From Candidatus Falkowbacteria bacterium (GTDB lineage Bacteria > Patescibacteriota > Patescibacteriia > Patescibacteriales > GWE2-39-37): a DNA stretch of 64,000 nt. The DNA is taken from the NCBI GenBank assembly GCA_013336275.1, contig JAAXUA010000001.1, positions 142,167-206,166 on the forward strand. Direction: 5' to 3'. Made by a program: the position numbers and the translations under genes. Positions 52,141 through 61,519 of this stretch are shown here, piece after piece (position 1 is the stretch's first letter; every line of letters starts with the position of its first letter). The notes beneath the pieces were generated by a model. The model did not search any database. It was not told where the DNA came from and saw nothing but the letters and a program-made list of their open reading frames with translations.

Positions 52141-52231
52141 GAGCCGAGAATGGGGATCCCCGCCCAAGGCGGGCAGGGAACCCATGGTCTACGTGTGGAG
52201 TTTATCCGCCTCGGGCGGAAGTGCGTCGCTT
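52141..52231 (-). pseudogene. Degenerate 3' partial copy of tRNA-Thr carrying two GC-hairpin insertions
   Basis: GAGCCGAGAATGGGGATC (52141-58) is identical to 52241-58 of tRNA-Thr. Similarity resumes after the inserts CCCGCC-CAAG-GCGGG and TCCGCC-TCG-GGCGGA and ends at GTGCGTCGCT. The D-arm and 5' acceptor strand are absent. Confidence 0.7.
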
Positions 52232-52238
52232 TATTTGC

Positions 52239-52314
52239 TGGAGCCGAGAATGGGGATCGAACCCACGACCTACGCGTTACGAGTGCGTCGCTCTGCCAAC
52301 TGAGCTATCTCGGC
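52239..52314 (-). tRNA. tRNA-Thr (anticodon CGU), CCA encoded
   Basis: Reverse complement is GCCGAGATAGCTCAGTTGGCAGAGCGACGCACTCGTAACGCGTAGGTCGTGGGTTCGATCCCCATTCTCGGCTCCA. It folds as a cloverleaf with one A31-C39 mismatch. Confidence 0.9.
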
Positions 52315-59608: not shown

Positions 59609-60733
59609 ATGAGAAAGAGAATAATTTTAGCGCTAATCATGGCGCTACTCGTCGGTCTAAACCCTGTCTTTGTCCAGGCAAGGGAGGGTGAGTCCGGAGG
59701 CAATAGCGGATCGGGAAGTTCTGACTCCGGCAGCGGATCGGATGATTCTAGTTCTAGTGGTTCATCCAGTTCGAGCGGATCGGATGATTCTAGCGACTCT
59801 GGCCGCTCATCATCGAGCAGCAGCTCAGATGATTCTAACAGCGGCATGGAAGTCGAGACTGAGCATGGAGTCACTTTCCTCAAGCCTCATGGCGTTTCTG
59901 GCGGCGATGCTGCCAGGACACTGGGTCTTGGATCGGAAGGCATGGAAGTCGAGACTGAGCATGGAGTCACTTTCCTCAAGCCTCATGGCGGCAATCGCAA
60001 TGCCGCATTGGAAAACAATCTGTCAGGCCGGATCGTCTTGCAGGTACAATCCAGGGGCGAGGCCTGGTATGTCGATCCAGTGACCAAATCAAGAGTCTTT
60101 TTGGGACGTCCGGATGACGCTTTCAAAGTCATGCGCGAACACGCCCTGGGCATCACGGATGACAATCTGGCACAGATTGCCCGCAGTGACGAGAACCGCC
60201 AAAGCGGCACCATCGCTAGACGCCTGGCTGGACGCATCGTCTTGCAGGTAGAGGGAAGCGGTGAAGCCTGGTACATCAATCCATTGACTCTTAAGCGCCA
60301 TTTCCTTGGCCGTCCAGCCGACGCTTTCAAAGTCATGCGCGGTTTGGGCTTGGGCATTACGGATGACAATCTCAACCGTGTCAGGATGTTAGTTGGAAAC
60401 GTGGGGCAGAGAAAGTTAATCGTCTCCTTGTTAGCTGACAGCAGCTCTGGACAGAGCGGCTATGCTGAGATCAAAGAAGTTAACGGCAAGGCCAAAGTCG
60501 AAATCCGGCTCTCTGGTGCTCCGTTGAACTCAATCCAACCGGCACATATCCACGTCGGCAACCGTCCTAACCTCGGCGCAGTGAAATATCCGTTAAGCAA
60601 CGTGGTAAACGGCTTCTCGGAAACGACATTGAGCATCTCGTTTGACCAGCTGCTATCCGAGCGGCCATTGGGCATCAACGTCCATAAGTCAGCGACTGAG
60701 ATGGCAATTTCCGTAGCCAGCGGCAATCTATAG
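59609..60733 (+). CDS. Secreted modular repeat protein (Ser/Asp-rich linker, 2x17-aa repeat, 2x~55-aa repeat domain, C-terminal CHRD-like region)
   Basis: 374 aa. Signal peptide ...NPVFVQA|RE. GMEVETEHGVTFLKPHG occurs twice. GRIVLQV..GEAWY..P.....FLGRP.DAFKVMR..LGITDDNL occurs twice. C-terminal QPAHIHVG...NVHKS. Confidence 0.7.
   Translation: MRKRIILALIMALLVGLNPVFVQAREGESGGNSGSGSSDSGSGSDDSSSSGSSSSSGSDDSSDSGRSSSSSSSDDSNSGMEVETEHGVTFLKPHGVSGGDAARTLGLGSEGMEVETEHGVTFLKPHGGNRNAALENNLSGRIVLQVQSRGEAWYVDPVTKSRVFLGRPDDAFKVMREHALGITDDNLAQIARSDENRQSGTIARRLAGRIVLQVEGSGEAWYINPLTLKRHFLGRPADAFKVMRGLGLGITDDNLNRVRMLVGNVGQRKLIVSLLADSSSGQSGYAEIKEVNGKAKVEIRLSGAPLNSIQPAHIHVGNRPNLGAVKYPLSNVVNGFSETTLSISFDQLLSERPLGINVHKSATEMAISVASGNL
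59843..59990 (+). repeat. Perfect 52-bp direct repeat (59843-59894 and 59939-59990), period 96 bp, inside the CDS
   Basis: GGCATGGAAGTCGAGACTGAGCATGGAGTCACTTTCCTCAAGCCTCATGGCG occurs twice without a mismatch. Confidence 0.95.
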
Positions 60734-60751
60734 ACAACTGAATATAATAAT

Positions 60752-60780
60752 AAAAGACGGAGCTTTACGCTCCGTCTTTT
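60752..60780. terminator. Bidirectional intrinsic terminator
   Basis: AAAAGACGGAGC-TTTAC-GCTCCGTCTTTT. Confidence 0.8.
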
Positions 60781-60783
60781 ATA

Positions 60784-60997
60784 TTGCTCGGGGACAGGGA
60801 TTTTCGCCTCACCAGTCCGCCGTCGCAGACCGGTTCGTTGCCCCGGGCAGCGCAGAAGTGATTCCCATCACTTCTGCGGCGTTCGACTGCGATGTTGCTC
60901 TGGTGAGCAACATCTTGCTCGCTGCTGCCCGTTCGAATCCCACTCCAAAATAAATAATAAAATAGAGCACATCTGGTGAAGTGCTCTATTTTATTAT
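60784..60997. other. tRNA-Gln 3'-end duplicate (60784-60802) plus ~150-nt highly structured non-coding insert plus 15-bp hairpin (60956-60995)
   Basis: The 19-nt TTGCTCGGGGACAGGGATT is repeated perfectly at 60998-61016. Nested helices: 60808-15/60900-07, 60822-28/60887-93, and an 11-12-bp hairpin at 60852-77. An alternative 10-bp hairpin lies at 60891-60914. Confidence 0.7.
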
Positions 60998-61000
60998 TTG

Positions 61001-61071
61001 CTCGGGGACAGGGATTCGAACCCCGATTGACTGGACCAAAACCAGCTGTCCTACCATTAGACGATCCCCGA
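61001..61071 (-). tRNA. tRNA-Gln (anticodon UUG)
   Basis: Reverse complement is TCGGGGATCGTCTAATGGTAGGACAGCTGGTTTTGGTCCAGTCAATCGGGGTTCGAATCCCTGTCCCCGAG. Cloverleaf with a U1-A72 pair. CCA is not encoded. Confidence 0.9.
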
Positions 61072-61193
61072 ATGTTTCTATGATTCTATTGCATATTCGG
61101 GACAAGCCCCGAATATTTTTGTTTGGAAATGAAAAAACCACGAGGTGGTTCATTGCTATCTTACTATATCTTGCCTCTTCTTGTCAAAACAGG

Positions 61194-61221
61194 AAAAAGG
61201 GTTCGAAAATCGAACCCTTTT
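61194..61221. terminator. Bidirectional intrinsic terminator
   Basis: AAAAAGGGTTCGA-AAA-TCGAACCCTTTT, 2 nt after the stop of the 53-aa ORF. Confidence 0.75.
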
Positions 61222-61223
61222 AA

Positions 61224-61385
61224 TCAGATGGTCTGGCTAGAGGCCAGGCTATCCAAGGCGGCGTTGGCAAGGAGCAGGATTTTAGTAATCAGTTCGATTA
61301 CTTGAGTTGCCACGTCCGGAAGGGTAGCGCGTAAGACCAAGATGGATAAGAGGAGCGATAGCGCCCCAGACATTGCTTTAAACAT
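61224..61385 (-). CDS. Candidate 53-aa hydrophobic peptide (MFKAMSGALSLLLSILVLRATLPDVATQVIELITKILLLANAALDSLASSQTI)
   Basis: ATG-initiated ORF between a structured ~125-nt leader and a terminator. No SD. Coding status is uncertain. Confidence 0.3.
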   Translation of the reverse strand: MFKAMSGALSLLLSILVLRATLPDVATQVIELITKILLLANAALDSLASSQTI

Positions 61386-61519
61386 ATGTTTATTATGCTT
61401 AAGAAGGGGGACTATCGGTCGACTAACCGATTGGCGTATATATCCGCAAACCCTTCCAGTGACTGGCGCCTGAAGCGCCAAGCACCGAAAGGTTTGCGGC
61501 AATTTTTAAGGGACAAATC

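Follow-up and report, generated by a model that had tools for sequence, protein, structure and literature searches.

Among the closest described counterparts of the locus reported here is the transfer RNA (tRNA) attachment (att) site of the T-loop class, at which, as Williams reportedly set out in 2002, an intact tRNA gene is accompanied by a displaced repeat. Single-stranded DNA that folds into the substrate of an enzyme has precedents in integron attC sites, the folded attP of the CTX phage and REPIN/IS200-type hairpins, and tandem inversion duplications arising by template switching at short palindromes have been described in Salmonella. Here we consider a stretch of 64,000 nucleotides (nt) from a Candidatus Falkowbacteria bacterium (assembly GCA_013336275.1, contig JAAXUA010000001.1, positions 142,167 to 206,166), called the window throughout and always meant at its full length, in which an intact tRNA-Gln(UUG) gene is followed on its own strand by a structured element that ends in a repeat of the 3' end of the tRNA. 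The original prediction, made from the letters of the window, had seen in this arrangement the classical footprint of site-specific integration and had offered three explanations: a decayed att scar, a small non-autonomous tRNA-targeting element, or a non-coding RNA co-transcribed in the tRNA trailer. We found at least 50 homologues of the element (51-157 bits) in Patescibacteria and some other phyla. The reading that we prefer, at a probability of roughly 0.55, is that they form a widespread, uncatalogued family trailing tRNA genes, in which a small non-autonomous mobile core is flanked by arms re-templated on each tRNA and is transcribed with that tRNA.

The window copy is a member of this family and takes its fold. 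It matched covariance model R1 at 150.9 bits (E 1e-36) and model R2 at 136.7 bits, with a match span of 60781-60955, and was the only match to either model within the 64-kb window. Its single-sequence minimum free energy (MFE) fold is the family consensus fold, and the minus strand of 60784-60946 has an MFE of -84.9 kcal/mol against -57.4 +/- 3.9 for shuffled sequences (z = -7.0), in agreement with the earlier impression of a strongly structured insert. The tRNA and the parts of the element are, in window coordinates:

61000-61071, minus strand: tRNA-Gln(UUG), intact (ARAGORN; Rfam RF00005, 58.7 bits)
60784-60946, minus strand: whole element, closing helix P1 plus core (covariance-model match; MFE fold equal to the consensus fold)
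60931-60946, minus strand: 5' arm GGAGUGGGAUUCGAAC, the 5' strand of P1 (GGA / GGGAUU / CG), reverse complement of tRNA nt 53 to about 68
60924-60930, minus strand: 5' strand of P2, GGGCAGC, pairing with 60845-60851
60884-60921, minus strand: P3, made of the base CGA/UCG (60919-21 with 60884-86) and the hairpin GAUGUUGCUC-ACCA-GAGCAACAUC (60891-60914)
60852-60877, minus strand: P4 hairpin GCAGAAGUGAU-GGGA-AUCACUUCUGC, stacked on the 3' strand of P2
60845-60851, minus strand: 3' strand of P2, GCUGCCC
60838-60844, minus strand: conserved junction NGGRCAA, after the 3' strand of P2
60808-60837, minus strand: P5 module, with outer pair C60837-G60808 and tandem GA/GA (60835-36 and 60809-10)
60811-60834, minus strand: P5 hairpin ACCGGUCUGC-GACG-GCGGACUGGU
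60784-60802, minus strand: 3' arm AAUCCCUGUCCCCGAGCAA (the left repeat), exact direct copy of tRNA-Gln nt 58-76 plus trailer

The 19-mer TTGCTCGGGGACAGGGATT occurs twice, at 60784-60802 and 60998-61016, with 19 of 19 positions identical (BLAST E 1e-4 within the 64-kb window), and corresponds, as first proposed, to the 3' part of tRNA-Gln(UUG) in reverse complement; it covers nt 58-76 and three bases of the trailer. This gene does not encode CCA, its 3' end being ...UCCCCGA-G73-C. Beyond the 19-mer the repeat continues, 79% identical over 34 nt, and enters the T-rich arms of the two terminator hairpins that flank the element. The segment GTTCGAATCCCACTCC at 60931-46, which had been described as inverted and T-arm-like, is an inverted copy of the T loop, T stem and acceptor 3' strand of the tRNA (16 nt, 88% complementary) and does pair with the left repeat at 60784-60802. 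Within it, the 11 core-proximal nucleotides of the 5' arm match tRNA-Gln exactly and two mismatches follow. In the resulting helix P1, GGA/UCC, a 2x2 mismatch, GGGAUU/AAUCCC, an AA bulge and CG/CG succeed one another; the 3' strand is 60792-60802, and CG at 60805-06 completes the helix after the bulge. The insert had been taken as a single unit of 195 bp, but it divides into a functional part of about 163 nt and a separate 48-nt terminator.

The family was assembled along several routes, and its loci are cited here by number. The first covariance model was built from 15 sequences, and 46 cmsearch matches lay at E <= 1e-10, with weaker ones besides. Loci L001 and L004 were reached through the neighbouring gene, and both carry the same insert after an identical tRNA-Gln; in comparison with the window a 48-nt block is identical, and two hairpins are changed in sequence yet still paired. 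Among the homologues of the neighbouring protein, synteny with tRNA-Gln is kept only in these two, the closest ones, and lost in L002, L003, L005 and L006. Scanning one genome per species with an 18-mer of the core returned 35 loci, about 17 of them true homologues and about 17 chance matches in coding DNA. Nearly all of the true homologues were Patescibacteria metagenome-assembled genomes (MAGs) of Parcubacteria, Uhrbacteria and Saccharibacteria, and those from outside Patescibacteria were one Binatia MAG and one Acidobacteriaceae MAG. A looser two-block pattern, run on metagenomes, gave 44 loci (32 true, 12 chance matches in coding DNA). The patterns of these collection scans were derived from the core, which biases both the breadth of the family and its apparent invariance.

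Three records that contain homologues (CAYUCS010000001.1, CAZQTS010000002.1 and CAYOXM010000015.1, with L001 and L048-L051) are titled 'uncultured Gammaproteobacteria'. For L001 the title is probably wrong, to judge from its synteny with the window, whose PilB is Patescibacteria-like: that protein is 81% identical to a Falkowbacteria protein, and its other named matches are Patescibacteria/Parcubacteria or simply 'bacterium'.

No family of Rfam 15 corresponds to the element. The window at the gathering threshold gave only three tRNAs, the region 60650-61250 at E <= 10 gave only spurious hairpin-type matches far below gathering, and ten other element loci at E <= 0.5 gave only tRNAs and spurious matches. 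Three patterns run on viral contigs returned chance or coding matches and phage tRNA-Gln genes, the core being found in none, and BLAST of the core against plasmids and phages returned no match. A literature search, incomplete so that a prior description is possible, turned up no account of such an element.

Elements of the family are 135-185 nt long, and a reduced 99-nt form exists as well. The latter follows tRNA-Gln in two Saccharibacteria loci (L030 6543-6641 and L041 228-326), where it retains P1, the closed P2 hairpin and one more hairpin; it may be a minimal functional core. A diverged sister form, starting GGGATGAGAACCGGTGGCAG or GGGAATCGAACGGGTTGG and scoring only 26-40 bits, comes after canonical copies in tandem arrays (L072 4243-4330 and 6032-6224; L077 1198-1364; L047 2513-2667).

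Support for the fold comes from 45 distinct sequences, on which covariation was measured. The conserved core, about 125 nt, comprises helices P2-P5 and a tandem G·A motif, and five helices make up the consensus: P1, in which the ends pair; the nearly invariant P2, GGGCAGC/GCUGCCC; P3, with its base and a variable hairpin; a 9-bp P4 set on P2; and P5. A standard pair was formed in 95.9% of cells, against 77.1% in shuffled alignments and 30.9-48.4% in slid controls, and the covariation score was 0.458 against 0.137 and 0.05-0.11, respectively. Changes on both sides were seen in 21 of the 30 pairs (242 cells). P2 is paired in 99% of cells, and four of its seven pairs never vary among the 45 sequences. 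The base pairs of P3 covary, with 14 U-G pairs on the tRNA strand among them, and the P3 hairpin changes its sequence while keeping its pairing in L001, L004 and L049. Both-side changes occur in all nine modelled pairs of P4 and all five modelled pairs of P5 covary, as does the outer P5 pair around the conserved tandem GA/GA (CG in 19, GC in 16); further covarying pairs lengthen P3 and P5.

Set against this consensus, the helices first drawn in the window fared unequally. The hairpin at 60852-77 is exact, with 11-12 bp and a GGGA loop on the minus strand. The 10-bp hairpin at 60891-60914, which had been called mutually exclusive with the nested helices, is exact too and is the conserved helix P3. 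Those nested helices (60808-15 with 60900-07, and 60822-28 with 60887-93) are complementary in the window, but the consensus fold does not contain them; in L001, the closest homologue read, the segments are different and no complementarity is apparent by eye.

These data bear directly on the idea that the element is the inert scar of an integrase-mediated island or prophage that entered tRNA-Gln and was deleted down to its att arms. The intact tRNA and a displaced direct repeat running from the T loop to the tRNA end are what such a scar would leave, and this part of the original prediction stands. The same core, however, is kept at more than 50 loci and 17 kinds of tRNA, with covariation, and no integrase was found in 48 loci, nor any integrase remnant. 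No recombinase was seen by Pfam among the neighbouring genes in the window, and no phage, plasmid or viral contig that we searched carries the core. The limit of the repeat on the 3' side varies from 9 to more than 54 nt, and att-site logic leaves an additional inverted copy of the tRNA end unexplained. We consider a scar highly improbable, and its decayed variant is contradicted by an insert that is kept, with compensatory changes, in at least 50 loci across phyla.

The arms of the element follow the neighbouring tRNA. In 35 of the 35 loci with an adjacent tRNA, the element lies downstream of it on the same strand, at a distance of 13-64 nt and once of 173 nt. Seventeen anticodons occur among these tRNAs, and the amino acids concerned number 11 (Gln, Glu, Arg, Ser, His, Leu, Lys, Gly, Ala, Met and Thr). 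In its 3' arm the element repeats the neighbouring tRNA exactly and in direct orientation, from A58 to the 3' end or past it. Of 34 loci, this copy begins at A58 in 24 and within nt 56-60 in 31. Its exact stretch measures 9-30 nt, any CCA encoded by the gene is part of it, and it often enters the trailer, by more than 50 nt at L063 and L095. In the 5' arm, tRNA nt 53 to about 72 appear as their reverse complement, without mismatch over 6-23 nt, and the arm always ends on the complement of G53. Where a T loop is asymmetric this inversion is evident, the arm reading GGGAAUCGAAC where the tRNA has GTTCGATTCCC. P1 therefore imitates the acceptor/T-stem stack of the neighbouring tRNA, the T loop being replaced by the core. 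In L032, L051, L076 and L095, P1 is a perfect minihelix of 14-15 bp followed by NCCA. We also considered the 5' arm of the window copy as a trace of descent from a copy at tRNA-Ser, and set this aside, as only 2 nt are involved and a subfamily-wide UUGGAAUGGGA motif explains them equally.

As a consequence of this anatomy, three copies of the tRNA segment running from about nt 53 to the 3' end lie in succession: a direct one within the tRNA itself, an inverted one forming the 5' arm and a second direct one forming the 3' arm. The first two copies meet at the terminator hairpin; the second and third meet at the palindromic centre of the T loop, TTCG|AA, where the core sits. Of the two boundaries, that at nt 57/58 is fixed and the other varies. 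In some loci the two terminators are homologous (L095, about 92% over 53 nt; window, 79% over 34 nt).

An inverted 5' arm also contradicts a degenerate tandem tRNA duplicate, or pseudo-tRNA, in which that segment would be a direct copy; similarity to a D arm or an anticodon arm is absent as well. The window does contain a decayed partial tandem copy of tRNA-Thr (52141-52238). A 53-codon open reading frame (ORF) at 60809-60970 on the minus strand spans the element and might be taken for a small protein gene, but element lengths of 135-184 nt, the hairpin insertions and deletions and the compensatory stem substitutions fit the fold and not a reading frame. We find either of these explanations hardly credible.

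Evidence of movement comes from three cores, beside tRNA-Ala (L095), tRNA-Leu (L094) and tRNA-Glu (L062), which are 95-97% identical over exactly the block GGGCAGC...GGCGG. Outside this block their arms, spacers and terminators are unrelated, and the arms match the local tRNA; even these near-identical cores differ by a compensated P4 pair. Because near-identical cores thus stand at different tRNAs with local arms, we infer that the core moves between tRNA loci and that its arms are rebuilt. The same observation fits the small tRNA-targeting element among the explanations first offered, as do signs of turnover: tandem arrays (L072, including two identical units, L047, L077 and L038), truncated relics (L048, L070 and L075) and solo copies without a tRNA (L064/L092 and L076). 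One genome can hold more than one copy, at tRNA-Ser and tRNA-Gln in the L001 contig (L049, L050) and at tRNA-Glu and tRNA-Arg in another contig. At tRNA-Thr(CGU) the element is present in L077 and absent in the window.

The window's own tRNA-Thr(CGU) (52239-52314, minus strand) shows a repeat of a different make. An 18-nt sequence, GATCCCCATTCTCGGCTC, at 52241-52258 recurs 100 nt downstream at 52141-52158, with a terminator after it, and the approximately 82 nt between the copies resemble a tandem pseudo-copy of part of tRNA-Thr into which two hairpins have been inserted: one takes the place of the anticodon loop, and the other separates C56 from G57 in the T loop. Neither R1 nor R2 matched this 3'-end duplication (52141-52258). 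In L077, tRNA-Gly(CCC) at 870-945 is followed about 17 nt on by a second copy of its last 17 nt, ATTCCGGTATCCCGCTC, perhaps a minimal remnant left by an event of the same type.

Could the family instead be a host-beneficial, trans-acting small RNA that serves the neighbouring tRNA as decoy, chaperone or guide, passed on vertically, with its match to the tRNA maintained by selection and gene conversion? Both the structure and the sequence of the junction show strong conservation across phyla, and same-genome copies have diverged through compensated changes in the manner of paralogous RNA genes. The solo copy in L076 retains a perfect 15-bp minihelix with an ACCA end although no tRNA is adjacent, and in L072 and L095 the 5' arm pairs without mismatch with 20-23 nt of the tRNA. 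Yet few tRNAs per genome carry the element, the occupied tRNA differs between lineages, and 96%-identical cores stand at unrelated tRNAs; it is also common to find identical copies in tandem, truncated relics and incomplete arms. The first pair of the acceptor is often absent, and the G3·U70 of tRNA-Ala (assumed canonical) would be A-U in the arm, so aminoacylation mimicry is not preserved. For these reasons we regard a host small RNA as rather improbable.

On the preferred reading of a mobile core with re-templated arms, the following course of events may be envisaged, which we infer, as we do the transcription, processing and mobility of the element, from comparison of its sequences; the place of the window copy in the family, the fold, the tRNA origin of the arms and the link with many tRNAs were observed directly. 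The core would copy itself from one tRNA locus to another, and both arms would be re-templated from the new tRNA at each new locus. The likely route would be microhomology at the T loop or template switching; alternatively, an enzyme acting in trans would nick the T loop or recombine there. Replicative copying might be primed at T-loop homology, either with template switching or with both 3' ends of a core fragment being extended on the tRNA gene. The tRNA would stay intact and keep its terminator. The element would then be transcribed with the tRNA, by read-through or inside tRNA operons, and its tRNA-like ends would let RNase P and the 3'-end machinery excise it, leaving tRNA maturation undisturbed. 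The conserved fold would be required for propagation or for an RNA function. The anatomy does not look like the product of conservative integrase recombination or of a fixed staggered cut.

That an RNA is made from the element on the tRNA strand is suggested by several features, which also suit the co-transcribed trailer RNA of the original prediction. It always lies on the tRNA strand, and sometimes between tRNAs of one operon: in L083 it stands between two tRNA-Met genes without a strong terminator, and in L082 it abuts tRNA-Thr. G-U outnumbers A-C in the helices by 44 to 17 on the tRNA strand, alifold gives -33.6 for the sense and -29.2 for the antisense strand, and in 27 of 45 sequences the MFE is the lower on the sense strand (p = 0.02). 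Motifs of RNA type, namely a tandem G·A and a recurrent A·G pair, point the same way. These strand tests are modest, however, and the alignment had been fitted to the sense-strand structure.

A DNA-only mobile element, with the fold taken by single-stranded DNA as substrate for an enzyme encoded in trans and with any RNA irrelevant, is a rival reading. The arms copy the sequence of the gene and not of the mature tRNA, trailer bases included (GCAA stands in the window where GCCA would end the mature tRNA), which is a point against an RNA. One boundary is fixed in the T-loop palindrome, the conserved 2-nt bulge of P1 recalls the extrahelical bases of attC, the hairpins are often perfect, and a terminator separates tRNA and element in most loci. 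Against this, copies inside tRNA operons must be transcribed, and the tandem G·A with its flanking covarying pair and the recurrent A·G are typical of folded RNA. It is also the 'loop' (the core) that is conserved and the stem that varies, the reverse of attC, and no recombinase or HUH gene lies near any of 48 copies. We think a DNA-only element unlikely, though by no means negligible.

Several further points weigh against a mobile, co-transcribed core. The invariance of P2 and of GAAC is partly built in, because both scans used core-derived patterns, and correction of quasi-palindromes at the DNA level could yield some apparent compensatory changes without selection on RNA. A hairpin of dG <= -12 kcal/mol lies between tRNA and element in 28 of 34 spacers, many of them followed by a U tract, and such hairpins should limit read-through into the element. 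Only 1-4 copies per genome were present in the stretches seen, and same-genome copies are about 82% identical, from which it follows that mobility must be slow, or that concerted evolution could mimic it. A search for an occupied/empty allele pair at tRNA-Gln, made through homologues of the membrane protein downstream in L001, found none; all seven loci returned had lost synteny, the last four of them on the evidence of called genes only. To our knowledge, no transposition or integration mechanism gives both a direct and an inverted copy of its target. Nor does any gene family recur near the element in the 48 loci, where the largest cluster of nearby proteins, ECF-sigma-like, accounts for 5 of 48.

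A bolder proposal is that the core itself works as an RNA machine, whether as a ribozyme or as the scaffold for a recombinase or nuclease that is RNA-guided and encoded elsewhere in the genome, the arms being programmable guides to both strands of the tRNA gene at the T loop, or else that it belongs to a tRNA-specific guide or decoy RNA system in bacteria. We treat this as a long shot. If the RNA machine were real, it would be a self-propagating, RNA-programmed element that retargets itself by re-copying its arms.

The surroundings of the window copy can be read as one unit. On the tRNA strand, a promoter-like site, tRNA-Gln, terminator hairpin 1, the structured element and terminator hairpin 2 follow one another:

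61158-61187, minus strand: promoter-like site TTGACA-N18-TAAGAT, about 87 nt upstream of tRNA-Gln (consensus scan, 10 of 12 matches)
60952-60999: terminator hairpin 1, with 22-nt arms of 95% complementarity, between tRNA-Gln and the element
60750-60782, at the minus-strand end of the element and the plus-strand end of the convergent ORF 59609-60733: terminator hairpin 2 (terminator scan and inverted-repeat search)

The first of these is a candidate promoter of the tRNA-element unit, a consensus match not being evidence of function. Terminator hairpin 1 includes the perfect 15-bp hairpin (60956-60970/60981-60995) noticed at the outset, which extends to the 22-nt arms listed above. With an A-rich 5' side and a U-rich 3' side, it could act in both directions, and its homologue in L001, L004 and L070 shows compensatory changes.

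Upstream of the tRNA, 61093-61118 holds an 18-nt partial copy (83%) of the tRNA-Gln 5' end and leader, 41 nt from the tRNA (GACAAGCCCCGAATATTT against GACGATCCCCGAATGTTT at 61060-77), with a 9-bp hairpin at 61093-61116; L004 has this copy and L001 is without it. The adjoining 61120-61500 is nearly identical by eye to L001 6120-6490 at the DNA level, yet the neighbouring protein gene is only 78% identical. This segment contains a small ORF (53 amino acids as called in L001) and, at about 61435-61500, a long hairpin-like stretch, CCGCAAACCCTTCC...GAAAGGTTTGCGG, for which Rfam gave no family match. An exact database look-up of the protein encoded beside tRNA-Gln returned no record.

If confirmed, the family would add to the structured RNAs or mobile elements of bacteria a class that is new and widespread, and particularly frequent in Patescibacteria, whose small genomes are expected to hold little non-coding sequence. 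One conserved core with two arms rewritten from the tRNA 3' end points to an undescribed form of DNA copying or targeting at tRNA T loops. Short repeats of tRNA ends are routinely taken for scars of prophages and islands, and here such a repeat marks a conserved element.

In comparison with known systems, the element is not filed under any known family. With tRNA att sites of the T-loop class it shares an intact tRNA, a direct repeat from the T loop to or past the 3' end and an insert placed after the tRNA. Unlike these, it has a cargo of about 125-170 nt without an integrase, a conserved core at 17 tRNA types, an extra inverted tRNA end and a repeat whose 3' limit ranges from 9 to more than 54 nt. 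No recombinase gene or remnant was found between the repeats or adjacent to them, nor is there room for such an ORF, and the cargo, far from being unrelated or neutrally decaying as in an integrase scar, is the same core at more than 50 loci with compensatory changes.

Ends that pair as an acceptor/T-stem-like helix are also found in transfer-messenger RNA (tmRNA), the bacterial Y RNA YrlA, viral tRNA-like structures, mascRNA and plant mitochondrial t-elements, where, as here, the 3' end is of tRNA type (NCCA where encoded) and the helix closes or adjoins a larger structured domain. By this analogy the element is a plausible substrate for RNase P and 3'-end enzymes. In contrast to the tRNA mimics, it has the core instead of a T loop, is without D and anticodon arms, and takes its identity from the adjacent tRNA. 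Neither ARAGORN nor Rfam found a tmRNA in the window, and L095 gave one sub-threshold match of 26 bits to permuted tmRNA that spans tRNA and spacer. A resemblance to tmRNA through GGAUUCGA was set aside, being explained by the T-loop complement and finding no support from ARAGORN or Rfam.

Folded-DNA sites and MITEs (miniature inverted-repeat transposable elements), among them attC, CTX-phage attP(+), REPIN and the ends of IS200/IS605, are likewise small, non-coding, dependent on structure and present in few copies per genome, with imperfect inverted repeats, a conserved bulge and no gene of their own. The element differs in that its interior is conserved and its stems derive from the target, in being tied to tRNA genes and to one strand, in its RNA-type motifs, and in having no cognate integrase or transposase nearby. 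As to attC in particular, GAAC/GTTC borders the core and P1 has a 2-nt bulge, but the boxes misfit RYYYAAC / GTTRRRY and no intI lies nearby. As to MITEs, the arms (8-23 nt) are terminal inverted repeats, but their sequence is that of the local tRNA and not of the element family; the repeat (9 to more than 54 nt) overlaps one arm and is no fixed short target duplication, and many near-identical copies were not seen. Analogies with IS91, IS605/TnpB, bridge RNA, casposons and retroviral primer-binding sites were considered and rejected, each failing on at least one boundary or for lack of an enzyme.

The guide logic of group I introns is matched by a 5' arm that is complementary in guide order, to tRNA nt 58-72 and then 53-57, across 57|58. 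RF00028 gave no match at E <= 10 (60650-61250), and the element, unlike a group I intron, leaves the tRNA uninterrupted and has a core of only about 125 nt. Finally, tandem inversion duplications have the same direct-inverted-direct order and junctions at natural palindromes, here the terminator hairpin and the T-loop TTCGAA; what sets the element apart from them is a conserved foreign core at one junction, and its recurrence at many tRNAs in many phyla.

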